Under the pieces are notes generated by a model that was not told the origin of the DNA, searched no databases, and was given only the letters and a program-made list of their open reading frames with translations. The position numbers were made by a program, and so were the translations under genes. A DNA stretch of 64,000 bases from Escherichia coli (GTDB taxonomy: Bacteria; Pseudomonadota; Gammaproteobacteria; Enterobacterales; Enterobacteriaceae), in NCBI RefSeq assembly GCF_022846255.1, contig NZ_AP025682.1, one strand, 5' to 3'. Of this stretch, positions 16,217 through 59,076 are shown one piece after another. The stretch's first letter is position 1. Each line of letters starts with the position of its first letter.

Positions 16217-16693
16217 TTAAAGCAGACCGTGTTCCGCAAAGGAGAAAACCTGGTTGCCACCGACTATCAGATGGTCCGGCACCCGGATATCCACCAGGGC
16301 CAGTGCCTGTACCAGACGTTCGGTGATAAGCCGGTCTGCCTTACTGGGTGTGACTTCACCGGACGGGTGATTGTGTGCCAGCACCACGGCAGCGGCATTG
16401 TGATACAGGGCGCGTTTAATCACTTCCCGGGGATGGACTTCCGTGCGGTTGATGGTGCCGGTGAAGAGGGTTTCACCGGCAATCAGCTGATTCTGGTTGT
16501 TCAGATACAGCACCCGGAATTCTTCACGCTCCAGTCCCGCCATGTTCAGAATCAGCCATTCCCGTGCCGCATGCGTGGAGGTGAAGGCCACGCCGGGTTC
16601 ATGAAGATGGCGGTCCAGGGTTTTCAGGGCCCGCTGAATGAGGCTGCGCTCACCGGGCGTCATTTCTCCGGGCAGAAAGGAAATCTGTTGCAT
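16217..16693 (-). CDS. RadC-like JAB-domain protein (YeeS/YfjY/YkfG family)
   Basis: 158-aa ORF with the JAB metalloprotease motif HNHPSG and the position expected for yeeS. Confidence 0.75.
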   Translation of the reverse strand: MQQISFLPGEMTPGERSLIQRALKTLDRHLHEPGVAFTSTHAAREWLILNMAGLEREEFRVLYLNNQNQLIAGETLFTGTINRTEVHPREVIKRALYHNAAAVVLAHNHPSGEVTPSKADRLITERLVQALALVDIRVPDHLIVGGNQVFSFAEHGLL

Positions 16694-16707
16694 TGTTCCG
16701 GCCCCTT

Positions 16708-17217
16708 TCAGTCAATGATGCGCATAATGGCGCTGCATTCCGGATGTTGCAGGGCGTAATCCCGCAGCCGGTAATAGTGGACCGTCATGGCATAACACTC
16801 CGTACGACAGGCATGATGGCTGTACGCCATCAGACAGGCGGCAATGCCGGCAGCTTCCGGGCTCATTTCAGCGCGGTTACCGTTCATGGCATTGAACAGT
16901 ATCCAGGTTTCTCCATCATCTTCATCCGGTTCAGGTGCTATAAATGCGCCACCGTTGTTCAGGGTGTACAGATTCCAGATACCCCCGCAGTAGTCTTCAC
17001 ACAGACGGTCCATCCAGCCGAAGACACGGGGCTCCAGGGTCACCCACTGTGGAATGAGGCCAAAGTGCTGCGGCCAGAAGCTGATGCGCTGTTCATCAGG
17101 GACGGGAGTGGCAACCAGCTGAGGTGGGTTATTCCCTGATGCAGTAGTTACGGAAACAGAAGATGTGGTGGAATTATGCGCAGAGGTTGTCATGAGATTA
17201 TTCCTTATAAAAAGCAA
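16708..17217 (-). CDS. Antirestriction protein (KlcA/ArdB-like, YfjX/YafX family)
   Basis: 169-aa ORF; position and acidic C-terminal region typical of the antirestriction genes of E. coli cryptic prophages. Confidence 0.6.
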   Translation of the reverse strand: MLFIRNNLMTTSAHNSTTSSVSVTTASGNNPPQLVATPVPDEQRISFWPQHFGLIPQWVTLEPRVFGWMDRLCEDYCGGIWNLYTLNNGGAFIAPEPDEDDGETWILFNAMNGNRAEMSPEAAGIAACLMAYSHHACRTECYAMTVHYYRLRDYALQHPECSAIMRIID

Positions 17218-33582: not shown

Positions 33583-34004
33583 ACGGTATAAAAACGGGGC
33601 TGGGGATCACGCCGGGTGAACACATAATCAGTGCTGATTCTGCACTCAGCAGAAATATCCGGCAGTGTTTCTGCCTTTCCTGTCATGGCCGGTTGATTTT
33701 GCAGACAGATGCTCAGGGGGCATGGTTTGAGCATGATTTATATGCCCTGAGCGAGCAACAGAAGGCAGCCTGCGTGGTGCTGAATCCGGAGAAGTCCCAC
33801 CCTTACATTGAGGATATGGCGATGTTTTTATCGCCATTACCGGTCGTGCTGGAGTGGCATTGTATGATGTGCGAGGGGCTTTTTCATGGGAAGAAGTTCT
33901 GTGAGGCCTGTGGTACGGGGATTTATTGCAGAGCAACATGTACGAAGTATGTTTACAGGTACCAGCCAGATTTGTACCAGGACTGCGGAGGTGCACTCAC
34001 TTAA
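33579..34004 (+). CDS. Cys-rich hypothetical protein (zinc-ribbon-like), paralog 2, translationally coupled to paralog 1
   Basis: 141-aa ORF; ATGA start/stop overlap at 33579-33582 with a GAGGAGGGGG SD; same C-x2-C ... WFEH ... C-x2-C ... C-x2-C-G-TG pattern as paralog 1. Confidence 0.45.
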   Translation: MNGIKTGLGITPGEHIISADSALSRNIRQCFCLSCHGRLILQTDAQGAWFEHDLYALSEQQKAACVVLNPEKSHPYIEDMAMFLSPLPVVLEWHCMMCEGLFHGKKFCEACGTGIYCRATCTKYVYRYQPDLYQDCGGALT

Positions 34005-34706
34005 TCCGAAATGCCCGCTCTGCTCAGGGCGTTCAGGCTGACTATCAATGGCATACATTTTATCCGGTGTTTCGCACCCACACCGTGCAACGACTCGACA
34101 CCGGATATCCGCAGTCCCGCTTACCTGAATAAAACCCGGGGGATTGATTGTGTACTGTGGTGTGAAATCGCACCGTGATCGCTGATTCGCCGAATCCGCA
34201 CTGTGGTGTCAATCAACCACACGCGAGAGTCGTCTCAGGCTTCGCCTGCCTCAGGACGATTTCTGCATAGCTAATTCCCGGGGCAACATTTATAGAGGCG
34301 CTGTGCGCTCTGATGGTCGCCACTTCTGACCCGGACCATGCTCCTGATATGTCGGAATATAATGTGATGTTAGGCATCAGAGAGGAATATTTCGATGCCC
34401 CTAATCTGGGGCGTTTGATTCTGGATGTCTGGAGCAATCCGGGCTTTGTGTCACCGGACGAATCAAAGCAGTACCACCCGGGATGTGGCGCTGGATCGTC
34501 ATTCACCGGACTGTGAAGACATACTTAAAGAGCTGATATGGGCGTTCAGTGATTTCGCCCGCGATCATCGTGGTGTGTGTGATCCGGAAGCCCGTTACCT
34601 CGCCGGTAATCCTTGGTATCCGTAGCAGGCCAGCTCTGAAAGCACAGCTCAGCAGATTCCCCGCATTCGCACAACCTTCATAAATCTCACAGAGGACATT
34701 GTGGCC

Positions 34707-34916
34707 ATGTTGACCACAACAAGCCACGACAGCGTATTGCTGCGTTCCGATGATCCCCTGCTCGACATGAACTACATCACCAGTTTCACCGGCATGACCG
34801 ACAAATAGTTTTATAAACTGATCAGTGAAGGCTATTTTCAAACTGGGCGGTACAAAAGCGAAGTGGAGCAGTGGATGCAGCAGCGAATAGAGGGAGCGTG
34901 GGGGCAGCAGGATGAA
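34707..34916 (+). pseudogene. alpA-like regulator pseudogene (in-frame amber at codon 34 replacing the conserved Trp; normal stop lost)
   Basis: Translation MLTTTSHDSVLLRSDDPLLDMNYITSFTGMTDK-stop-FYKLISEGYFQTGRYKSEVEQWMQQRIE parallels the intact AlpA at 29494-29700; TAG at 34806-34808. Confidence 0.5.
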
Positions 34917-35816
34917 ATGTGTTGTGATGCCGGTACGCTGGCATTGTGCAAAATGCCGGCGCTACTATTGTGGAAATCAGCCCTGTCCCTGGTGCTGGCG
35001 ATACTCCCTGCAGACATTCTCCGGTCAGCCAATAGGTTGTTGCTCTTTCCTGATCGATTCGTCATTCCATTCTTTTTGTTTATAATGGGCATTACACTGG
35101 TGTTGGCGTGTTTACCTGCGTGTCTGCACCGGTTCAGTAAAATTAGAAAAGTTCAGAGTCGGGGGAAATCCGGCGTTTTGTTCAGCAGGCGGTGGATCAC
35201 TGGCCAAATCTGTTGGCATTTCACTTCACGTTCCATTCGACAGAAGGAAACATCTACGGGCAACAGATTCATGCATTCTGCACTTCCTTTTACCAACAGA
35301 TACACAAACGTATTACTGCACGTACTCACACGACCAGTCCATCATCGCCGTTGGTGTTACACTGGCTGCTGGAACAACATGGAGGAGCAGTAATACGATG
35401 CGTATTGCTCCTCAGCCAGACGAGTATTTGTCATCCGCGAGCCAGCGTCACGGTTGATGAAGAATGTTCGAAACTGGTGGATTTATTGCAACAGATCTGG
35501 CCAGTGATAAGCACTGGCGGACAATGCCAAGTGGAAAGGTGTTTTCAGGTTGCCCGGGGTGATACATCAGAGCAATACGTTGCGTTAAAAACAGATGCGT
35601 TGTCGTTTGCTGTGTCGGATCACAAATCATCCGGTGCAGAGTAGTATTCTGGCTGTATTCTGGTAAATCAGCGTATTATCGATATATTATCGTACTATCA
35701 GAAACCGTATCGTCTGTTGATGGCTAGACTGGCCCCCCTGAATCTTCAGACAACCAATATCACTTATTTAAGTGATAGTCTTACTACTAGTTTTTAGACT
35801 AGTCATTGGAGAACAG

Positions 35817-36182
35817 ATGATTGATGTCTTAGGACCGGAGAAACGCAGACGGTGTACCACTCAGAAAAAATCGATATTGTTCAGCAGAGCCTTGAACCGG
35901 GGATGACAGTCTCTCTCGTTGCACGGCAACACGGTGTGGCAGCCAGTTATATCTCTGGCGCAAGCAATACCAGGAAGGAAGTCTCACTGCTGTGGCTGCC
36001 GGAGAGCAGGTTGTTCCGGCCTCTGAGCTTGCTGCCGCCATGAAGCAAATTAAAGAACTCCAGCGCCTGCTCGGCAAGAAAACGATGGAAATGAACTCCT
36101 TAAAGAGGCCGTCGAATATGGACGGGCAAAAAAGTGGATAGCGCACGCCCCTTATTGCCCGGGGATGAGGAGTAAACGTCGT
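35817..36182 (+). pseudogene. insC: IS2 orfA (insC) disrupted by frameshifts
   Basis: The frame from ATG 35817 stops after 29 codons; the conserved InsC segments ([53 protein letters not shown]) appear in three different frames. Confidence 0.5.
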
Positions 36183-36198
36183 CAGTCGTTGTCGCCGG

Positions 36199-37038
36199 GT
36201 GTCGCATGAGCAGTTGCACATCATTCTCAGACGAAGTGATGACTGGAAGGATGGCCGCCGCAGTCTTCACACTGATGATACGGATGTGCTTCTCCGGATA
36301 CATCATATCATCGGAGAGTTGCCCACGTATGGTTATCGTCGGGTATGGGCGCTGCTTCGCAGACAGGCAGAACTTGATGGTATGTCTGCGATCAATGCCA
36401 AACGTGTTTACCGGAACATGCGCCAGAATGCGCTGTTGCTTGAGCGAAAACCCGCTGTACCGCCATCGAAACAGGCACATACCGGCAGAGTGGCCGTGAA
36501 AGAAAGTAATCAGCGATGGTGCTCTGACGGGGTCGAGTTCCGCTGTGATAACGGAGAGAGACTGCGTGTCACATTCGCGCTGGACTGCTGTGATCGTGAG
36601 GCACTGCACTGGGCGGTGACCACCGGCGGCTTCAACAGTGAAACAGTACAGGACGTCATGCTGGGAGCGGTGGAACGCCGCTTCGGCAACGATCTTCCGT
36701 CGTCTCCAGTGGAGTCGCTGACGGATAATGGTTCATGCTACCGGGCTAATGAAACACGCCAGTTCGCCCGGATGTTGGGACTTGAACCGAAGAACACGGC
36801 GGTGCGGAGTCCGGAGAGTAACGGAATAGCAGAGAGCTTCGTGAAAACGATAAAGCGTGACTACATCAGTATCATGCCTAAACCAGACGGGTTAACGGCA
36901 GCAAAGAACCTTGCAGAGGCGTTCGAGCATTATAACGAATGGCATCCGCATAGTGCGCTGGGTTATCGCTCGCCACGGGAATATCTGCGGCAGCGGGCTT
37001 GTAATGGGTTAAGTGATAACAGATGTCTGGAAATATAG
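36199..37038 (+). CDS. insD: IS2 transposase orfB (InsD, DDE integrase-fold catalytic domain)
   Basis: 279-aa ORF recalled as InsD-like (...[13 protein letters not shown]...NQRWCSDG...[10 protein letters not shown]...[14 protein letters not shown]...). Confidence 0.8.
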
Positions 37039-37049
37039 GGGCAAATCCA

Positions 37050-37508
37050 AACATAGGTTGAGGTGTTTTGTCCATGCAGACGAATGCAATTAGCGACGTT
37101 GACTCCGGCCTGACGAGTTTGCTCTAGTAATGTTTCTCCATAAAAATCATTGCCTACAGCAGATATCAGATGTACATCCCGGCCCAGCAAAGCGAGATTA
37201 TGAGCGATATTGCGACCTACCCCACCAGCAGAGCAATAAATTCTGCCTGGATTAGAGGAGGTCTGTGGATAACTTATATCCGCTACACCACGAATATCCA
37301 TGTTAATCGCACCCAATGCGACACAATATTTTTGTTGAGTCAAGATGTAACCTTTACCTTTGATAGCCCCTTTACGCATTAGATCCATTATGTGCGCAGC
37401 GACACGCGAACGACTGATCTGCAAAATATCAGCAATTTCACTCTGTTGAATCAGTGGATTACGTCGCAGGATGCTGAGTATTTCTTTTTCTCTGTGATCC
37501 ATCGGCAT
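37050..37508 (-). pseudogene. HTH-containing PfkB-family sugar kinase (YeiI-like) gene truncated by the IS2 insertion
   Basis: N-terminal HTH (EKEILSILRRNPLIQQSEIADILQISRSRVAAHIMDLMRKG) followed by a ribokinase-type motif (GGVGRNIAHNLALLG). The reading frame runs straight into the IS2 right end at 37049. Confidence 0.5.
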
Positions 37509-38491
37509 GCTCCTGTCTGTTTATTTAATGTTCATAAAAATGATATTCAATGTCCTCTCATGAGTATTACTCAGGAAATAATATCGTCGAATTTTTTTCT
37601 GAGTAATAAGATATAATATATCAGTTTTTCTTAACAAATTGTAGGCTGATTTGAGTTGAATCCAGATGATTGAACTCATTCAGTCAAGCCAAATGATTGA
37701 GAAATTTCGTTTTCCGATATGTGATTGTTGCGTTGTGGTTGGGATAATGTAATCTATTTTCCATGTGGGAGAAAAAACCTTCACTATCGTGTAATCGTGG
37801 ATTCAATCTGGAACGACAACGTCCAACCATTGTTCTGCAACATGATGTGAGTGTCAGTTGGTGGTTCCGGATAAAGGAATAAAAGAAGATAGATTATTAA
37901 TCCCCTGATATATAACGCGATTTGTAATTAAATAGTCTTATTTGATGTTGAACGTTAAATAGCTTCTCTATTGTGATGTAACAATATACAGTGATTAATG
38001 ACAAGCATCTTGCAATGCATCTTACAATGTTATACTTTGATATTTTTGGCTGTGTTGGTCAGAGGCTGACTTCGCGGAATATTTATTTCGTAATTCAAAA
38101 AAATATTGATGTCTTTTTTATAAACCCAAAAATCGAATGAAAGAATCAGATTGTATATCTGATACAGATCATGGAAAAATGAATGTTCACTCGTATAGAC
38201 TCCTGATAAGTCAATAGTGAGTATAGTAAATATGATCATTTATTGTTTCGTTTTATCAATCTTATTGATTATTCTTCTGTTTTTCTTCTATTCTAAGAGA
38301 TGGGTGTCTGCTTTTTATAGATATCGTCAAAAGCGCTATCATCAGAAAGTCAGGGACAAAGCGTTTAATGCTTATGCAGAGGAAATGAAGAAAAAGAACA
38401 AAGATATAAAAAAATATAAACATTTCTGGCTTCCTCCACTCTGATTCATTAGTGTGTGTAGTTCCGATATCTTGTTTTACAGGAGAATATC

Positions 38492-38722
38492 ATGATCAAA
38501 GATTCAAAATCATCGAATAATGGCGAATATTTAACGACGAATGAAATTGTTAAGATGCAGTGGCTAATGAGTAAAGCTCGTGTTAATGCTGGCAAGTTAA
38601 AGAAACAAAACACCTCTGCATCTTCACAATCAGGAAAGAATGCCTCATATTTTCTAGAAGAATTAGTATCTAATAATCCAAAAAAATTAAAATCAGGTTG
38701 TGATAGCACAAGAGAAGAGTAA
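38492..38722 (+). CDS. Small hypothetical hydrophilic protein (76 aa) in an AT-rich region
   Basis: Good SD (AGGAGAA, 6-nt spacer) before the ATG; otherwise unsupported. Confidence 0.25.
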   Translation: MIKDSKSSNNGEYLTTNEIVKMQWLMSKARVNAGKLKKQNTSASSQSGKNASYFLEELVSNNPKKLKSGCDSTREE

Positions 38723-40732
38723 TACACCGATAAACTGCTCAGCAGGAATGTTCTCGGTCACGAGTCGCTCAACTGTTGTAAATATGGCATCGGGAACTAT
38801 ATATTTGAGTTTAGTTTATCTAATGACAGGAATCCTTGTGGTCGTCTTTTTCTTGAACGATGTAGGGGCTGCGCAAAGTGATTTTCCTGCTTCTGCATGC
38901 AGTCCTTCTAAGATCGTGAGAGAGAAAACATGGACATTGGGGAAAGCTGAGAGCATCAAATTATTTAACCACGACGATTTATCCCTGCTTTGTTGTACTG
39001 CCGTAATGCTTGAGCTGGATAGTCCTGAATCACGGGGAAATCTACGGCTCCCGATTTTTAATAGTTGCGACCTGATAAAACAGCACCGTATATCCTCGCA
39101 CTGAAGGGCCGGGTTTTACAGCGTACTGGATAATTGACTATGCGTTGAAGTACAAATTGATAATGCCAGCCTGAAAACAGAATTCTCTGATCTATTTACA
39201 AGACTATATACTTGACAACGACTCTCTTGTCAAGATATATTATTTGAGAGTACCCCTGTGCCACCCTGTTATGGCTATGACTCGTGTTGGTGGTATAGGG
39301 TACGCTCTGATACTTTTAATTAGGTGAATATAGCGGTTCATTTTGGAGTTTTAACGGGTAATGTGGTTGGATTGTAATCGTCCTCTGTATTATAAAGTCT
39401 GGAGGTTGCTTTTGTAGCAATATTCTGATCTGACTCCTGCAATTGGTTTCCAATGTTTACATCATAAAATCCATTTATAATGAGGATCAATTTGTAAACT
39501 ACCGAGATCCTTATTTGGGCTTTATACCAAACTTACCTACGGTTCACTCTAAATTAAGTCATTCTGTTAGTAGCTGGATTTGCTGCGAGCTGATATTTTT
39601 CATATTTTTATATCGTGATTACCTGTTATGGACTGTTCTGCAGCTTAGATCTTAGTCAAAGCTGTGTATATTCATTACTATCGTTATCTTTTACTCGTAG
39701 GATGATTATATTGCTACCTGTACCGTTTAGTCATCGTAAGTGTAGTGGTGGCCGAGGAACACCGGATCGGTATAAGGTGAAAAAGTGCTTTTTCAGGTAT
39801 CCGCGTCAATGTTATCGTAATTTTTAGTATGACGATAACCTGCCGTGACCAGCATTTTGGTTAATAATTTCAGTATAGTATCCAGTTGTAGGTCCTGGCG
39901 TGAATAGGACAAACGTATTATCTGCAAAAACAATGCTCGTTCGGAGTGTCAGTCAGTTATTCTGGTTGTATTGGATCGAGCCCTGATTGCGTGTGATATG
40001 GAAATACTCAGTTTCATAATTGGCGATATCCCGGGAAGAACTAACAAGCTGCGTTGTAGTTTTAACTTTTGCCACAATTTCGTCATATGCTGAATTACGG
40101 TTGCAGTTCCCGCCAGAATAATCGACAAAATCGTAGCCAGCGCTAATGAAATTTAATCAGTCATAAATGAAGAGTACGCTAAAGGTTTCTGGTACTAACA
40201 AAATTCGTTTTGCCATTTCAATCCTCTGTGCAGATAATTTATTGTTGGAATGAACAGATTCCGGTTAGAAAATCACATGTTGCAATCACGAGTGGGGCAG
40301 GTTGCTTGTTCGGGGAAATAATTTACCTTGATAAAATATTAAAATTGTATATCAAGTTCTAAATACATCTCAATAAAATAAACTAATTTATTTTATTCGT
40401 TAATAATAGTTTATTCTGGAGAGGTACAGACGCGGGCAGTTCACCCAGAATATGATTACTGATACGTACCTGGTTAAACAGCCCCGATGTTGATATTCAG
40501 TAATACGAAGTTTACGACTATTTATCTGATTTCATTGTTGGGGATTTTTAATCTCGACTTAATGCTAAATACGGGCCACTTTGATGTCAGCCTTATCTGA
40601 AGGTACCGATAATGAACGGACATTCTACTATATAAATAGTTCACGATTAGAACTAATTTGTAGTACTATTATGAGTAATAGTGAATCTGGGGAAAATCAG
40701 GACATGGAGCATGGCATCATCATTTTCACGCT

Positions 40733-41800
40733 TTGCAAAGCATGCAGCTGTTAATTTTACTGATACAGCAAATGAAAGATAAATTACGATTTGAAGTGAA
40801 TGATACTCAGGGCCGTTTCATCTTTCCGGAAACATGGTTCAATACACTTATAGATGAATTTGAGGAACTGGTTGAGGCATATGATGCGGAAAAAATATGT
40901 GGGAAAAACTATATAAGTGAACTCCAGCGTCTTACCGAGCAGGTGCCTGATTTTATCGATGCGTACGCTCATTTGGCATACGTGTTTCTGGAACAGAATG
41001 CGCCATATCAAGCCCTGGATATGGCGCTTAAAGGTTTAGCTGTAGGTAACCGTTTAATAACAGAAGGGTTCAATGGAGAAATTCTCTGGATATATCCAGA
41101 GAATCAACCCTACCTGCGGGCCCTTTATGCTACAATCCTTGCCAATATACATCTTCAACATCATCAGGATGCCGTCATACTTACGGATAAAATATTGACG
41201 TATAACCCAGAAGATAATCAGGCTGCACGATGGTTACTGGGACAAGAACTGTTACGTGCAGGCGAGCGTGATCGGGCGCTGACCCGGTATTCTGATGAAT
41301 TTTCACCTTATTGGTATGAACTTGGATTTCTGCTCTTTCTTAACGGAGAGTTCGTGACGGCAGCAACTGCTTTTCGCCACGGTTTTGCCACTAATATCTA
41401 TATTGCAGATATTTTATGTGGAAATCTACATCCCTTTCCACTTCCTCTGTGGCATAGTTTCTTGGGAGGACCAGACATCGCTGAAGATTATTATGCAACA
41501 TATGGTCTGTTCTGGGGGCAATATCCGGAAGCATTACTTTTCGTAAATTGGCTCTACAATCAGTCATCTGTGTTGAATGAAAGAGCAACAATAATTAAGT
41601 GTGCAGAAGCATTGTTGCGAGAAGATGATTACGAGGCATGCGAGAAGATTCTTAAAGAACAGAAGAGATTACAGGATAATATTGACGACAGGATTTCTGA
41701 GAAAATAGTTAGGAAATACCGAACATTGCAAGGGGATGAGATTTGGCCATGGATGTTACCGTCTTCAATTGATAAGGAGCTGTCCCCTTTTGATGAATAA
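40733..41800 (+). CDS. Hypothetical helical-repeat (TPR-like) protein
   Basis: 355-aa ORF of moderate GC inside an AT-rich region; repeated amphipathic helix pairs; true start may be the internal MKDKLRF. Confidence 0.5.
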   Translation: MQSMQLLILLIQQMKDKLRFEVNDTQGRFIFPETWFNTLIDEFEELVEAYDAEKICGKNYISELQRLTEQVPDFIDAYAHLAYVFLEQNAPYQALDMALKGLAVGNRLITEGFNGEILWIYPENQPYLRALYATILANIHLQHHQDAVILTDKILTYNPEDNQAARWLLGQELLRAGERDRALTRYSDEFSPYWYELGFLLFLNGEFVTAATAFRHGFATNIYIADILCGNLHPFPLPLWHSFLGGPDIAEDYYATYGLFWGQYPEALLFVNWLYNQSSVLNERATIIKCAEALLREDDYEACEKILKEQKRLQDNIDDRISEKIVRKYRTLQGDEIWPWMLPSSIDKELSPFDE

Positions 41801-42428
41801 ATATGTGTTGCACGTTTAATATATTAATCATGGCTGGGCGTATAAATCATCATGAAGAGGTATAAATTATAATTATACCATGATTATGAACACGCCCTTC
41901 ATTCTACATCTGTAGGGCGTGATCTTCTACTGAATTTGATTGTAATTATAGCAGTATCTGTATAATGGCTTTATCAGTGAGTTAATATTATGTCGTATGT
42001 AATATAGTAACAGAACAATAATATAAAAATTAAGCTGAGTGTGGATATAAAAGAAAGTTTGTTATAGATTAAATGAAATACCCTCAGAAATATTCTGATG
42101 TAAGGTTATACATAATTGTCGACTATAATCGTATGATATTACATGAGTTTTTAGTGAGTGTGCGATTTCATGTCAGAAATGGATTGTAATGTTTTGTACA
42201 TAAGCATATTTGAGTGCTAAGTGCCTGATGGATATATGTTAAAATATATAACCCTTTGAGTACATTGTCCAAATGGATATAAGAGATAATTTATTATATC
42301 AAAAAATCTGATAACTGAAAACCTCTTGTGTCCCAATAAATAAGCTTAGTTTTAGAAAAATGAGATGAATTTATACAGTGATGCCCTATGAAGCTATTAT
42401 CATGATAGTCATGACACATAATTCTCGT

Positions 42429-43739
42429 TTATTTTAATGGACTAATATCACTATTATTATCGCTATCTGTGATTTTTTCCCCATTCACGGAGATCATTCC
42501 CTGGATATATGAATCCCATAGATGTACGTCACCTTTATGAAAAATAATGCATGACATTGCGATTTTTTGTACTTTATATATCTGTTTATAGTATTCTTCT
42601 GAGTTTAATGGTGTATCTTTCAAGCTTTCATTCCTTGCTGGAAGAATCTTGACGGGACAGATAAAATCTGTATCCCCGAGTGAAAAGACATTAACTCCGG
42701 TTATAAAAAAGATACCCGGAATGTCTTGATGCAATCTCGTATTCCAGACTTGAGGATTAAACAGTTTATATGAATATTTATTTACATCTATATAATATTG
42801 ATGAGGACGCCAATCACTGATACCCGACATACTCATCGTCATATTGATAATTATATCAGGAATAGGTTTGAATAATACACTTAGAATGAACAATATGGCA
42901 GGAGGGAGTATTGCGATAGATAGCAAAGAGTTCAACCCTTCTTCTTGTTTTTCTTCTTGCTCATTTATCACTATCACACCTGGCAACATTCCTAAAAAGA
43001 TAAAAGCTAATGCAATGCAAGAAAATGATAGAAACTGTGATAAGATATCTGCACTCTCTTCAAGTCTGATCTTATTTGTCAAAAATAGCAGGGGGATAAT
43101 CTGAACAAGCCCGGGTAGAATTAAACATAAAGGAAGAGTGTATCTTATCCTGTTCCTGGGACGATATTGTTCGTGATTCTCGTGATTCTCGTGATTCTCG
43201 TGATTCTCGTGATTCTCGTGATTCTCAATGTTCTGTTCCCGAGGGGTATTTTTAGTGAATATTAATTTTTCTGAGAGGAAATATGAGACGAAATAATTAA
43301 ATAATACTATTAGTATTACTTCTGATATGGATGGATATAGAGTATTTTCTTCTGAAAAGGTAGACAGAACTGACTTTAGCACTAATGAAAAATAGAAAAC
43401 AACACTGTTCATATAGCAAATTATAGCAATTCTGTGCGCGATTCCTTTGTGATTTTTATAATAGTCTTTATGCCATGTATATGTATACACCAATACATGA
43501 GAAGATATAAAAATCAGTGAGGTTAGAGCCATTAGAGATAAAAGGATAAATATAAAGATAACACTTAAATAAAACTTTATGTCTATTGAGTCGAAAAACA
43601 AATCAAGTCTACCGAGTCCTTGCAGATAGAACCATATTGCAGATATGGCGCATCCTGTACTAAATACAGAAGACGTTAACATGGCGAGAAAAGCTTTATT
43701 ATTTAAATGTGAAAAGATAGATCTATTCATTATAAGCAC
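42429..43739 (-). CDS. Hypothetical polytopic membrane protein with an (ENH)6 His-rich repeat loop and a C-terminal soluble domain
   Basis: 436-aa very AT-rich ORF with multiple hydrophobic segments; 9-bp tandem repeat encodes ENHENHENHENHENHENH. Confidence 0.5.
   Translation of the reverse strand: MLIMNRSIFSHLNNKAFLAMLTSSVFSTGCAISAIWFYLQGLGRLDLFFDSIDIKFYLSVIFIFILLSLMALTSLIFISSHVLVYTYTWHKDYYKNHKGIAHRIAIICYMNSVVFYFSLVLKSVLSTFSEENTLYPSISEVILIVLFNYFVSYFLSEKLIFTKNTPREQNIENHENHENHENHENHENHEQYRPRNRIRYTLPLCLILPGLVQIIPLLFLTNKIRLEESADILSQFLSFSCIALAFIFLGMLPGVIVINEQEEKQEEGLNSLLSIAILPPAILFILSVLFKPIPDIIINMTMSMSGISDWRPHQYYIDVNKYSYKLFNPQVWNTRLHQDIPGIFFITGVNVFSLGDTDFICPVKILPARNESLKDTPLNSEEYYKQIYKVQKIAMSCIIFHKGDVHLWDSYIQGMISVNGEKITDSDNNSDISPLK
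43172..43225. repeat. 9-bp tandem repeat (CGTGATTCT)x6 inside the membrane-protein CDS (in-frame, encodes (ENH)6 on the - strand)
   Basis: Direct reading. Confidence 0.9.
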
Positions 43740-43945
43740 ATCATATTCTGTTGAGTATATGTCGATTTTATAATGTCATGTTCATGCAGATAATATCATA
43801 AGTAACATTAGTTGAACAAGAACAGAGTTGTAACAGATAAAGATCTCGTTGTTAGTTACATGATCTGATAAATGTTAGCATGAAATAGTAACTATATGAA
43901 GGATATAAGAACCTGTATCATAATGTCATATGCGTTATATCTGAT

Positions 43946-44707
43946 TCAGATATATTTTAATTTTGCTGATAGTTCTCGACATGCTTCAAGAACCAAAGTG
44001 GAATAATATTCTACTTTTTCTTTTGGCATTTGAATTTCCACACCACTAATGCTGATAGCAGCAATTGCTTCTCGAGCCTGATTAAACACCGGGGCGGCAA
44101 TGCAATAAATTCCTGGTGAATCTTCTGCGTTATCAAAAGCCCATCCTCGCTCACGAATACGTGCAAACTCTAGTATTAGATCAGATTTCCGAGTGATTGT
44201 CGTTTGCGTAAATCGAGGCAATGCCTCCTCAGGTAGTAAAGTGTCAATGACGTCTTGAGGTAACCATGCGCATAACGCTTTCCCCACCCCTGAGCTATGG
44301 AGTGGCAGCTTCTTACCTACCCACGTTCTGATACCAATTGGTTGAGTGCTTTCGAGTTTTAAGATATAGATTGGAGCGACTTCCTCAAGAATGCCTAAAT
44401 GGCAGATAAGATCAGTACTATCTCTCAGTTTTTCCAGCACCGGTCTCGCTACCTTACTTATGTCAAACTGTTCTAGCGAGCGATTTCCCCATTCATATAA
44501 TTTCAGTCCAAGGAAAAAACGCCCCCTTTCCTGACGTAACAAATGGTGTTCGACCAGAGCATTCAGTAAAGATGATGTGCTGCTTTTAGGCAGAGCCAGA
44601 TCTTGCTGGATTTGACTGAATGTGGCACCAGGAGAGTTGAAAAGATAATTGCAGATTCTGACTGTTTTATCGAGTGCTGGTACTGGTGTTCTTGTTTGAT
44701 TATTCAT
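43946..44707 (-). CDS. IclR-family transcriptional regulator
   Basis: 253-aa ORF with N-terminal HTH and C-terminal IclR effector domain; divergent from the catabolic operon. Confidence 0.8.
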   Translation of the reverse strand: MNNQTRTPVPALDKTVRICNYLFNSPGATFSQIQQDLALPKSSTSSLLNALVEHHLLRQERGRFFLGLKLYEWGNRSLEQFDISKVARPVLEKLRDSTDLICHLGILEEVAPIYILKLESTQPIGIRTWVGKKLPLHSSGVGKALCAWLPQDVIDTLLPEEALPRFTQTTITRKSDLILEFARIRERGWAFDNAEDSPGIYCIAAPVFNQAREAIAAISISGVEIQMPKEKVEYYSTLVLEACRELSAKLKYI

Positions 44708-45204
44708 AAAAAAATAACATATGATTTCTTACCAATGCTAAATAGTATACCCCAATCTTTATTAATGCATAGTGATGCTTAATCATTATGTTGCAGTTGA
44801 TCGACACAGGGGGACAAGAGTAGTTGTGTCACTGCCACATCACCCGGCATGCGATTTCACATCGGGATGTTCGAGAAGCATCAATGCTGCGCCCAAGATC
44901 CACCGAAAAGAAACGTGGGAATCACCGGCGGTGGGATTCATTGTCTATGCCCGTGTAGATTAGTGTGGATTTGCTGCACAGATGGTTCCGGTCTGAGAAA
45001 TGGGTAAATTCGTCGTTTACGACGGGAAGCTGCCTACACATGTTATACATCGTCTTCGTGTATCAACATGCTCCTATAAACTCGACTCAACTCACATTTT
45101 TCATTTCACATTGTAAAAACCTTTGACATGCAGAACCTTATTCTGATTCATTATATTCAACATGAAGAACTTTTGTTCCATATACAGAACTTAGTGAGAG
45201 CGAT

Positions 45205-55464: not shown

Positions 55465-56633
<1,169 letters not shown>

Positions 56634-57758: not shown

Positions 57759-58949
57759 TTATATAGCTGGTGACTCTTTTCGAAGAGCATCAAGGTAGTC
57801 AGCGTACCATTGCATCATTTCTCGTCTTCCTTCAAGGTAACGAGCATGGTTGTATGTACCACGAATGCTGTTTTTGTCCGTATGTGCAAGTTGCATTTCA
57901 ATCCATGCACTATTGAATCCTTGCTCGTGTAGAACAGTACTCATTGTATGACGAAATCCATGCCCGGTAGCTTTTTTGTCATAGCCAATCTTCTTCAAAA
58001 CCATATTGACGCTTGCATCGCTGATAGGCCTGTTAACATCATTTCTTCCGGCAAAGATGTATCTGTATCTTCCAGTCAGTTCTTTGAGGATTTGCAGAGA
58101 CTGGATTGCCTGATCTGACAGAGGGACGATATGCTCCTTCCTCATTTTCATCCGGGTCGGAGGAACTTCCCATATCTTTTGGGTAAAATCGATCTCACAC
58201 CATTCCCCCATACGTAATTCTACTGTTCTCAGCCCTGTGAGCATCAACAATTTTGTAGCTTCACGGGTTACAATACTGCCGGTGTAGTTTTCGAGTTTGT
58301 ATAAAAACTCTGGTAGTTCAGGAGGAAGCAGGAAAGGGTAATGTGTTCGCTTATAGCTTTTCATTGCTATAACCAGATCAGAAGCTGGATTGTATCGTGC
58401 CCGACCTGTAACAATGGCATACCGAAACACTTCACCACATCGTTGGCGAACTTTATTAGCTAGCTCGCAGGCTCCTCGGCTTTCGATACGCTGAAGAACT
58501 GCGAGAAGTTCAAGAGGTTCGATTTCACTAATGGGTCTGTTTCCAATGTAGGGAAACACATTATTTTTGAATGCTCTGTCGACATAATCAGCGTAGCTGG
58601 CAGACCAGCCTGAAACTTTTGCGTTGTACCACTCGGTGGCGATTGCGGCAAAAGTTCTTCCTTCGGAAAGGTTTTTCTCAAGATTTTCAGCTTTCTTGAC
58701 TTCACCGGGATCTTTACCATCGGCATGTATTTTCTTGGCTTCATCCCGACGTTTGCGAGCTTCAGCCAATGTAATAGTTGGATAGGTGCCAAATGATAGT
58801 TTCTTTTCCTTCCCCGCATAGTGGTACTTCATTCGCCAGTACTTTGAGCCGTTAGGATTGACCTGAAGGTAGAGCCCACCACCATCGGCAATCTTATAAA
58901 TTTTATCTTTGGGTTTGGCTGTTTCAACTTGTCGAGCTGTCAGTGGCAT
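57759..58949 (-). CDS. P4-type tyrosine integrase
   Basis: Start placed at MPLTARQVETAKPKDKIYKIADGGGLYLQV (typical P4-Int N-terminus); C-terminal catalytic motifs HGFRHT...Y. Confidence 0.8.
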   Translation of the reverse strand: MPLTARQVETAKPKDKIYKIADGGGLYLQVNPNGSKYWRMKYHYAGKEKKLSFGTYPTITLAEARKRRDEAKKIHADGKDPGEVKKAENLEKNLSEGRTFAAIATEWYNAKVSGWSASYADYVDRAFKNNVFPYIGNRPISEIEPLELLAVLQRIESRGACELANKVRQRCGEVFRYAIVTGRARYNPASDLVIAMKSYKRTHYPFLLPPELPEFLYKLENYTGSIVTREATKLLMLTGLRTVELRMGEWCEIDFTQKIWEVPPTRMKMRKEHIVPLSDQAIQSLQILKELTGRYRYIFAGRNDVNRPISDASVNMVLKKIGYDKKATGHGFRHTMSTVLHEQGFNSAWIEMQLAHTDKNSIRGTYNHARYLEGRREMMQWYADYLDALRKESPAI

Positions 58950-59076
58950 CTGGGGGCCTCGCAATAGATTGACCAAGATGTGCCCCTAAATAGGCCCCCA
59001 AATGTGACTTGATTTACGTTCCCCTGAGGAGAATTAAGGCGACTATTTGAGTAACATAAGTAAGGGTATGTGCTGA

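Follow-up and report, generated by a model that had tools for sequence, protein, structure and literature searches.

The longest gene-free gap in the window, by which we mean the whole 64,000-nucleotide stretch of Escherichia coli DNA that was analysed, sits in a horizontally acquired accessory island of a rare lineage of this species, and is probably a non-functional scar of recombination and deletion within that mosaic island. Two modules have been joined here. The first is a second, Citrobacter-like block of yeiI, nucleoside transporter, psuG and psuK, from which the upstream nfo has been lost, and the other a module with a TPR-protein gene, of the kind that is found elsewhere directly after a P4-type integrase; between the two there is a truncated yaiO–acetyltransferase pair, derived from a cluster of the yaiS-yaiP-yaiX-yaiO type. 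The remaining 2.4 kb could be wreckage of the same kind, too decayed to be recognized, or else intergenic orphan DNA, and for this 72% without a parent gene the scar would be an extension of what is seen in the other part. The stretch would yield no conserved protein or structured RNA, and any present-day roles would probably be only incidental, namely promoters for the kinase and TPR genes that flank it and the predicted binding of H-NS to AT-rich foreign DNA of this type.

An earlier note on this DNA had described positions 37509-40732 as AT-rich, with neither strand holding an open reading frame (ORF) longer than 134 aa, a situation unusual for a bacterial chromosome, and in these respects it was accurate. 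The ORF listing gives nothing longer on the two strands (the 134-aa ORF measures 137 aa from stop to stop), the GC content is 0.35-0.40 per kb, where GC-normal parts of the window have 0.50-0.57, the full range over the stretch being 0.32-0.40, and this is the window's largest interval between ORFs of at least 150 aa. In composition-matched random sequence the expected longest ORF is 102 ± 20 aa, with a probability of 0.06 of attaining 137 aa or more, and the 3-base periodicity has an S/N of 0.3-1.7 within the stretch vs 3.9-8.9 in the flanking genes. Since the ORF lengths of the stretch are as in such random sequence, it behaves like non-coding DNA, a real feature rather than an artefact; its short ORFs would simply be those that sequence of such composition yields. 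The right edge probably lies 39 nt further to the right, as the TPR gene shows homology with its paralogue loci only from 40755 onwards, and its start is placed at ATG 40772 in other assemblies. Equal or greater AT-richness is found elsewhere in the same island, at 1-4000 and 42000-44000 (29-32% GC).

Table 1. Features of the gene-free stretch and of its two flanks (positions in the window).
Feature	Position	Strand	Characteristics
IS2-like insertion sequence (left flank)	35714-37049	+	Cuts kinase gene short; 95% identity to IS2-family elements
yeiI-like HTH/PfkB sugar kinase gene, 5' part (left flank)	37050-37508	-	About 153 of 364 codons
Gene-free AT-rich stretch	37509-40732, more likely to 40771		From ORF listing and base composition
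AT-rich segment replacing nfo and native kinase promoter	37509-38231		32.5% GC; no DNA or protein relatives; holds imperfect palindromes
70-aa ORF (75 aa from GTG 38217)	38232-38444	+	N-terminal hydrophobic helix, Lys/Arg-rich tail; orphan
76-aa hydrophilic ORF (ATG 38492)	38481-38722	+	AGGAG at 38481-38485; orphan
134-aa ORF	38700-39104	+	Disrupted alleles; length within random expectation
Two adjacent imperfect palindromes	39211-39312		8-bp stem 39211-39234, then A/T-rich tail; hairpin of ~70 nt at 39242-39312
YaiO-family outer-membrane beta-barrel pseudogene	39574-40216	-	Codons 1-220 of 257; C-terminal 37 codons missing
Hexapeptide-type (LbetaH) acetyltransferase pseudogene, yaiX-like	40221-40481	-	Codons 107-193 of 193; 4 in-frame stops
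Junction DNA, acetyltransferase remnant to TPR gene	40482-40771		No relatives
TPR-repeat protein gene, intact (right flank)	40772-41800	+	Pfam TPR/ANAPC3

The stretch gave no match by megablast in E. coli, so that it can be considered lineage-specific, and the homology with the relatives of both flanking modules ends at its edges. On the left, an IS2-like element whose orfB (36199-37038) has rve/HTH_21 domains interrupts the kinase gene, which is intact at 364 aa (P0026, P0029) in the loci L010-L012, and the homology between those intact loci and the window stops at 37049. The kinase is recognized by NCBIfam PRK09954 (312 bits) and by Pfam HTH_24 and PfkB, its nearest relatives are in Citrobacter (79-81% at the amino acid level), and the fragment keeps a periodicity S/N of 4.9. 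With 24 yeiI loci from other genera or species, in which nfo precedes the kinase gene, the homology is lost no more than about 20 nt from the kinase start; the segment found here in place of nfo has a periodicity S/N of 0.26. On the right, the TPR gene has 41 homologues, a periodicity S/N of 8.9, a pN/pS of 0.34 and a sole indel, of 9 nt and in frame. Its promoter presumably lies within the junction DNA that precedes it, where a 56-aa ORF (P0005) is called in a few assemblies only. A P4-type integrase or att relic 5' of the TPR gene was considered and rejected: no integrase or tRNA-att remnant was found upstream of the gene, the integrase of locus L014 matches the window solely at 57771-58949 and nowhere in the stretch, and no tRNA genes were found in the window. 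The window does contain IS2 copies, Ag43, a YeeP-like GTPase and an integrase at 57759-58976, and no repeats are common to the stretch and the rest of it.

The suggestion in the earlier note that the region could hold decayed genes was borne out for 28% of it, a two-gene wreck on the minus strand (39574-40481) made up of yaiO and acetyltransferase remnants; the rest has no recognizable genes, and pseudogenes thus do not account for the whole region, about 72% being left over. The yaiO remnant keeps its ATG at 40216, is interrupted by no fewer than 8 in-frame stops and, near codon 104, by at least one frameshift, and is recovered by tblastn in two frames, as aa 1-189 (E=2e-29) and aa 104-220 (E=4e-9) of 257 aa. 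The acetyltransferase remnant, in which the 5' part of the gene is deleted, is found by the same means with a plasmid protein (E=1e-6) and with the K-12 fragment (2.6e-9), and the two remnants together have at least 12 stops and at least one frameshift. By blastn they are ~70% identical to E. coli yaiO/acetyltransferase over 744 nt, with a protein identity of about 40%, and the end of the acetyltransferase at 40221, next to the yaiO ATG, repeats the arrangement of the E. coli and plasmid loci. No intact YaiO frame matching PF19413 was encountered, the Pfam search on the six-frame translation being without a match at E ≤ 1, and the yaiO remnant has no 3-base periodicity.

The age of this wreck can be read in its substitutions. 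The differences per codon position are nearly equal (27.5, 30.9 and 29.1%) and changes from GC to AT exceed those from AT to GC by 131:58, which together indicate a long neutral decay, of about 0.38 substitutions per site without selection, in which GC has fallen from about 48% to 38%. Single-nucleotide indels separate the haplotypes in both remnants, at 40162 in yaiO (L011) and at 40297 in the acetyltransferase (L010). Gene conversion from the chromosomal yaiO, considered as the origin of a polymorphism hot spot at 40100-40450, was rejected, since of 29 sites K-12 agrees with the window at 13 and with the alternative allele at 9. No closer intact YaiO donor was found, the best being E. coli YaiO with 43%. 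A search with 17 queries for remnants of nfo, frmRAB, yaiL, mhpT, yaiP, yaiS and the plasmid AraC-type gene gave two marginal matches (E≈0.02 each), which were read as chance, that of nfo being wrongly positioned, and the literature searched had nothing relevant to the strain or to the yaiO cluster.

For the other 2.4 kb, relatives were sought at several levels. HMMER with 16 stop-to-stop segments against 1.84e9 cluster representatives found self matches only, and nothing related was found by blastn or tblastn in E. coli genomes, plasmids or phages, by tblastx against the 24 yeiI loci, or as a family in Pfam, NCBIfam, PHROGs, PADLOC or Rfam; on single ORFs, NCBIfam, PHROGs and PADLOC gave sub-threshold noise only. 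The protein clusters comprise three sequence variants only. These searches have a limited reach: the protein search needed segments of at least 50 aa and, by estimate, about 58 bits, so that wreckage decayed like the acetyltransferase remnant would have escaped it, and the Pfam scan of six-frame translations, which found nothing in the stretch, missed the two known remnants too and is therefore insensitive here.

The earlier note also allowed for small proteins, and it drew attention to an ORF at 38492-38722 with a strong SD. This ORF is present, with an AGGAG 6 nt ahead of its ATG; it corresponds to BDH31967.1, “hypothetical protein [Escherichia coli],” is carried by 79 contigs, and gene callers predict it in all loci. 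With its neighbor of 70 aa it gives rise to a different explanation of the region, which we regard as unlikely, whereby 38232-38722 would contain tandem, real, lineage-restricted small-protein genes, the first encoding a membrane helix with a basic tail, and the remainder would be regulatory surroundings and pseudogenes. None of the six haplotypes or of the cluster variants disrupts either frame, the two ORFs are co-directional and 47 nt apart with a terminator-like hairpin downstream (39211-39234), 38232-38722 is free of indels, and L009 and the window have no substitutions between them over 38290-38722 as against about 1.2% elsewhere. The segregating sites of the 70-aa ORF, a tiny sample, are three synonymous to one non-synonymous and conservative, a weak hint of coding. 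Intact frames in every known haplotype, the near-ideal SD of the 76-aa ORF and the 3:1 ratio of the 70-aa ORF also count against the scar.

However, several observations oppose such genes: (i) no homologue beyond self was found for any small ORF, in 1.84e9 clusters or by tblastn, the 70-aa ORF giving self matches (P0003) and weak sub-threshold family matches, and the 76-aa ORF self matches only; (ii) neither ORF has 3-base periodicity (for the 76-aa ORF, S/N 1.66, p=0.12); (iii) in the 76-aa ORF, again a tiny sample, the ratio is 0 synonymous to 2 non-synonymous, and the binomial p≈0.02 estimated for the 70-aa ORF, one of six ORFs tested, is lost on correction; (iv) both lengths are well inside the random expectation; (v) the SD-ATG motif is frequent by chance, with 15 occurrences of AGGAG-N4-9-ATG in the window, where a rough estimate expects ~11 by chance and real gene starts account for only about half of the 15; and (vi) there is no strong SD at the 70-aa ORF and no outstanding promoter upstream of the pair. 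That these two would be real small-protein genes of this lineage only, which may have arisen de novo in deeply decayed, AT-rich pseudogene DNA, seems quite improbable to us, although, if true, it would explain the retention of the tract.

The remaining ORFs are of a different kind. The 134-aa ORF is most likely spurious and is not maintained: a 1-nt deletion at 38939 disrupts it in L011, the change Q128* shortens it in L010, and its predicted length varies with the gene caller (88, 118, 131, 134 or 207 aa). Its 207-aa form (P0001), a read-through of TGA, was rejected, because the TGA codons are still in L009 and the call is hence an artefact of gene calling with an alternative code. A 69-aa ORF on the minus strand has a nonsense allele. 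In other words, the idea of small proteins mostly fails, with these two ORFs disrupted and no ORF having periodicity or a homologue, and what stands of it is the integrity of the 76-aa and 70-aa frames in all haplotypes.

A regulatory RNA, the third possibility in the earlier note, found no confirmation, as the Rfam cmscan of 34000-45000 on both strands gave 0 matches at E ≤ 1, and the only stable folds are palindromes at the DNA level, without covariation. Two such palindromic spots do fold better than shuffles, which counts against the scar. One, at 37520-37700 (z-score -4.2, plus strand), includes imperfect palindromes at 37565-37608 and 37644-37690; the other, at 39195-39335, has z-scores of -3.4 on the plus strand and -3.0 on the minus strand, and its first stem, with 3 GC pairs followed by ATATATTATT, was flagged as terminator-like by a pattern scan that found 2 such sites where shuffles would give 2.1. 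From these folds one could suppose a new non-coding RNA or cis-acting regulatory element, either a long structured 5' leader of the kinase at 37509-37700 or an sRNA with its end at the hairpins of 39211-39312, an explanation that we consider highly improbable. It would be favored by the change T→C at 37598, which turns a G-U pair into G-C, and by a strong -35/-10 match (11/12) at 39212-39241 overlapping the first hairpin. But the structures fold on both strands, and are therefore inverted repeats of the DNA; the 37520-37700 fold is antisense to the kinase gene; the haplotype changes in the 39211-39312 palindromes are mixed, one breaking a pair and one repairing a mismatch; no related sequence was found outside the lineage; and the counts of promoter and terminator consensus are at chance level. 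The 39211-39312 palindromes, of which no repeat was found elsewhere, may be relics of terminators.

The haplotypes differ by 0.3-1.9%, and the indels within the stretch, of 1, 1, 1, 10 and 12 nt (the longest a tandem-repeat indel at 38024 in L010), pay no heed to reading frame, vs 9, 27 and 36 nt in the neighboring genes. E. coli has a deletional bias, and that no deletion longer than 12 nt is seen among the haplotypes, despite such deep decay, is a further point against the scar. It leads to another explanation, in which the AT-rich DNA would have been kept as a putative platform of silencing or insulation, where H-NS/StpA would nucleate and so control how the foreign genes on its two sides are expressed, and which, if real, would explain why so decayed a tract has not been deleted. 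H-NS favors AT-rich, horizontally acquired DNA, the GC content of the stretch is 32-40% throughout, and the native upstream regions have been lost from both flanking genes. Nevertheless, haplotypes so little apart are too shallow for many deletions to be expected, the AT-richness is accounted for by the mutational bias and an AT-rich donor, and H-NS binding would be a generic property of DNA of this type and no selected function; we consider this explanation very unlikely.

In summary, the result is mainly negative, in that the window's longest gene-free gap would be a junction scar and no hidden RNA gene or new system. The yaiO and acetyltransferase wreck is nevertheless datable, and offers a clean example of how neutral decay and a GC→AT bias erase the coding signal: periodicity and detectability by Pfam have already gone at about 0.38 substitutions per site, and so, in what remains of tracts like this one, the absence of a homologue means little. 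Both orphan ORFs that stay intact would be cheap small-protein candidates for a Ribo-seq run on a carrier strain.

Among known systems, the 70-aa ORF, with one N-terminal hydrophobic helix and a strongly basic tail, resembles the small membrane proteins and type I toxin-like ORFs of enterobacteria; unlike type I toxins, it is longer than most of them, matches no Pfam, NCBIfam, PHROGs or PADLOC family, and has no identified antisense RNA or characteristic leader. The wreck at 39574-40481 resembles the E. coli yaiO–yaiX–yaiP–yaiS cluster (the K-12 b0358 region and its plasmid copies) in the start of yaiO, the gene order, the orientation and the spacing of 1-4 nt to the acetyltransferase stop, and in K-12 the acetyltransferase of the cluster is a pseudogene too, interrupted by IS2. 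It differs from this cluster in that both genes are dead, in its genomic place, and in that yaiO codons 221-257, acetyltransferase codons 1-106, yaiP and yaiS are missing. The decay of the stretch, with about 0.38 substitutions per site and equal rates at the codon positions, is deeper than that of typical recent pseudogenes of E. coli or Shigella, and most of it, unlike the typical pseudogene tracts at island junctions, is without an identifiable parent gene. It shares with those tracts of enterobacterial islands (of the pheV/pheU type, or CP4-44-like) its mosaic, IS-rich and AT-rich character and the abrupt breaks of homology at the edges of the modules.

Between the start of the yeiI-like kinase gene (37508, minus strand) and the TPR gene there is no ORF above 134 aa on either strand, and this is the largest interval separating ORFs of at least 150 aa in the 64 kb of the window; its AT-richness, likewise pointed out in the earlier note, is borne out by a GC content of 0.35-0.40 per kb, where GC-normal parts of the window reach 0.50-0.57. 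The right edge probably lies at 40771 rather than at 40732, since nucleotide homology with the TPR paralogues begins at 40755 and an ATG start at 40772 is called in several assemblies. The TPR gene itself most likely starts at that ATG rather than at TTG 40733, and at 41277 it lacks 9 nt that are present in all 11 other loci. None of the ORFs within the stretch is beyond chance length, because in composition-matched random sequences of the same length the longest stop-to-stop frame is expected to reach 102 ± 20 aa, and a frame of at least 137 aa arises in about 6% of them.

Decayed genes, small proteins or a regulatory RNA had been proposed as possible contents, and the first of these applies to more than a quarter of it (about 908 nt, 28%), which consists of remnants of yaiO and of an acetyltransferase gene; for the remaining 2.4 kb (37509-39573 and 40482-40771) the searches described below gave no relatives outside the lineage. 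Sensitive blastn returned a single piece of 744 nt (39729-40472) that shares about 70% identity with E. coli DNA; it covers 5′ sequence of yaiO together with 3′ sequence of the neighboring acetyltransferase gene, both on the minus strand. The yaiO remnant retains its ATG, but its frame is shifted near codon 104 and interrupted by at least eight in-frame stops; the acetyltransferase remnant, with four stops, has lost its 5′ part. By tblastn, the stretch lacks yaiP and yaiS. Compared with K-12, the differences are even across codon positions (27.5, 30.9 and 29.1%), GC→AT changes stand at 131 to 58, the GC content is 38% vs 48%, and the raw difference of about 30% amounts to about 0.38 substitutions per site (Jukes-Cantor, our own calculation). 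The pair is the product of long neutral decay, which by itself explains some of the AT-richness. The best candidate for an intact donor is E. coli YaiO, at 43%, and the search turned up none closer.

The haplotypes of the region are only 0.3-1.9% apart outside 40100-40450, a segment of about 350 nt that spans the acetyltransferase remnant and the 5′ end of yaiO; its alleles fall into two classes about 8% apart, vs about 1.2% in the flanks. Neither of the two lies nearer to functional (K-12) yaiO, which disfavors gene conversion and points to an old, recombining island locus; the segment has the look of a mosaic recombined from old alleles of the island.

Coding tests and homology evidence for the stretch, its remnants and the control genes
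Feature	Position	Strand	3-base periodicity S/N	p	Syn : non-syn	Disrupting alleles or tblastn match
TPR gene (control)	40733-41800		8.9	<0.002	8 : 10 (pN/pS 0.34)	none
Kinase fragment	36963-37508	-	4.9	<0.002
IclR			4.1	<0.002
436-aa gene	42429-43739	-	4.0	<0.002
IS2 orfB			3.9	<0.002
All parts of stretch, ORFs and pseudogene remnants			0.3-1.7	>0.12
134-aa ORF	38700-39104	+			4 : 5	1-nt deletion in L011, Q128* in L010
69-aa ORF	38030-38239	-			1 : 2	W38* in three haplotypes
76-aa ORF	38492-38722	+			0 : 2	none
70-aa ORF	38232-38444	+			3 : 1 (conservative)	none
yaiO remnant	40216-39574	-				YaiO residues 1-189 (E=2e-29) and 104-220 (E=4e-9) of 257, two frames
Acetyltransferase remnant	40481-40221	-				residues 107-193 of 193, E=1e-6

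The proposal of small proteins is mostly contradicted, as the 134-aa and 69-aa ORFs have disrupted alleles, and the indels among haplotypes measure 1, 1, 1, 10 and 12 nt in the stretch vs 9, 27 and 36 nt in neighboring genes. The 70-aa and 76-aa ORFs are undisrupted and could be real lineage-specific small proteins, although we consider this unlikely. The latter, which has been deposited as an E. coli hypothetical protein (BDH31967.1, strain TRECRb50), is indeed present with AGGAG 6 bases ahead of its ATG; this signal is suggestive, not decisive, since AGGAG-N4-9-ATG occurs 15 times in the window, about half at real starts. The substitutions in the 70-aa ORF give a binomial p≈0.02 (our own estimate), which fails correction for the six ORFs tested, and the counts of the TPR control imply that segregating-site data have little power. 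A longer form of the 134-aa ORF (P0001, a public 207-aa protein) was rejected, as its contig retains the TGA codons. The 207-aa calls (L009, a further haplotype, at 411-1034; P0001; cluster members P0016, P0019, P0021 and P0023) read through three stop positions of the window frame: at two of them a TGA is translated as Trp, and at the third L009 has TTA in place of TGA; they are gene-calling artefacts of an alternative genetic code in metagenome or Logan contigs.

For the remaining 2.4 kb, all 16 stop-to-stop segments of at least 50 aa from both strands were joined and searched with HMMER against 1.84 billion cluster representatives, and the sole matches were five ORFs called from the same lineage, P0001 among them. 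Nothing was found by blastn against E. coli genomes, plasmids and phages, by tblastn of the three tandem ORFs against plasmids and phages, by tblastx against 24 yeiI loci, or by tblastn of the genes that flank yaiO, yeiI or TPR paralogues elsewhere, and Pfam, NCBIfam, PHROGs and PADLOC gave sub-threshold noise only. As the cluster search demanded about 58 bits (our own estimate) and neither known remnant was picked up by Pfam, remains of rarer genes in an equally decayed state would go undetected.

A regulatory RNA is unsupported by covariance models (Rfam, 34000-45000, E ≤ 1), which gave no match. Sliding fold scans picked out two spots, 37520-37700 (z=-4.2) and 39195-39335 (z=-3.4 on the plus strand, -3.0 on the minus), both of them imperfect palindromes, which is why they fold on either strand, and without a second copy in the window or in E. 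coli. Haplotype changes within them are mixed (G-U to G-C, one G-C pair broken, one mismatch repaired), and promoter-like and terminator-like counts equal the shuffle expectation. A novel RNA or cis-element is a very improbable reading; the first hairpin of the second spot (39211-39234), terminator-like with its A/T-rich tail, could be a relic terminator between formerly convergent units.

The window is accessory DNA of E. coli; its Ag43–GTPase segment matches E. coli chromosomes at 99.9% identity, yet 37300-41000 has no megablast match among 5,426 complete E. coli genomes. The lineage is rare (the 76-aa ORF is found on 79 contigs): six loci, fetched via the neighboring IclR gene, match the window at 99.6-99.9% identity, and five more (L009-L013) are haplotypes with 98.2-99.7% identity. 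Three of these (L010-L012) are without IS2 and read IclR, membrane protein, TPR, the stretch, a 364-aa yeiI-like kinase, nucleoside transporter, psuG, psuK and MFS. The kinase shares 79-81% aa identity with Citrobacter proteins, against only 73% with E. coli YeiI; it is one gene of an additional, Citrobacter-like yeiI–nucleoside transporter–psuG–psuK module without nfo (L010, 7688-11998). In the window an IS2-like element (35714-37049) interrupts it after about 153 codons, all downstream DNA being replaced. In 24 species of other genera, homology stops within about 20 nt of the kinase start codon, with nfo directly upstream, a gene absent from that position in the window lineage. In common E. 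coli, islands at two separate chromosomal sites carry paralogues of the TPR gene (69% aa, about 2,700 member sequences) as the first gene behind a P4-type integrase; the stretch holds no integrase remnant and the window no tRNA. The breaks in homology on the kinase side, where nfo is lost, and on the TPR side indicate that the stretch is bounded by two recombination junctions.

Elsewhere in the window, the 436-aa gene, a multi-pass membrane ORF without family match, carries at 43171-43226 9-nt units (TCGTGATTC × 6.2) in perfect tandem, which encode HEN repeats; strains differ there in copy number, by 9, 18, 27 or 36 nt, invariably in frame, and this looks like contingency-type length variation. 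Positions 1-4056 (29% GC), with a 1117-aa ORF containing a HAD-hydrolase-like region and then a hexapeptide O-acetyltransferase (WbbJ-like), may be part of a surface-polysaccharide locus. Equal-length ORF pairs (16229-16759 and 34863-35393, 176 aa; 36199-37038 and 55794-56633, 279 aa) suggest repeated mobile-element copies, two IS2-like elements among them, and an integrase gene lies at 57759-58976 (minus strand).

In summary, the best-supported reading, and probably the correct one, is that the stretch is a non-functional junction scar. Recombination and deletion would have joined fragments of unrelated modules, leaving the yaiO–acetyltransferase pair behind to decay amid DNA that is itself decayed or orphan, and the flanking genes would use ad hoc promoters from it, in an incidental role. 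Binding by H-NS, predicted from composition, is probable and would be incidental too. One oddity is that the decay is very deep, yet sizeable deletions are not seen among the haplotypes; selected retention as a silencing platform would be a further reading, and a very improbable one. No description of the stretch was found in the literature. Tracts of pseudogenes and junctions are a known kind of feature in enterobacterial islands, and the junction scar described here would be an undescribed instance of it, with unusually deep decay.
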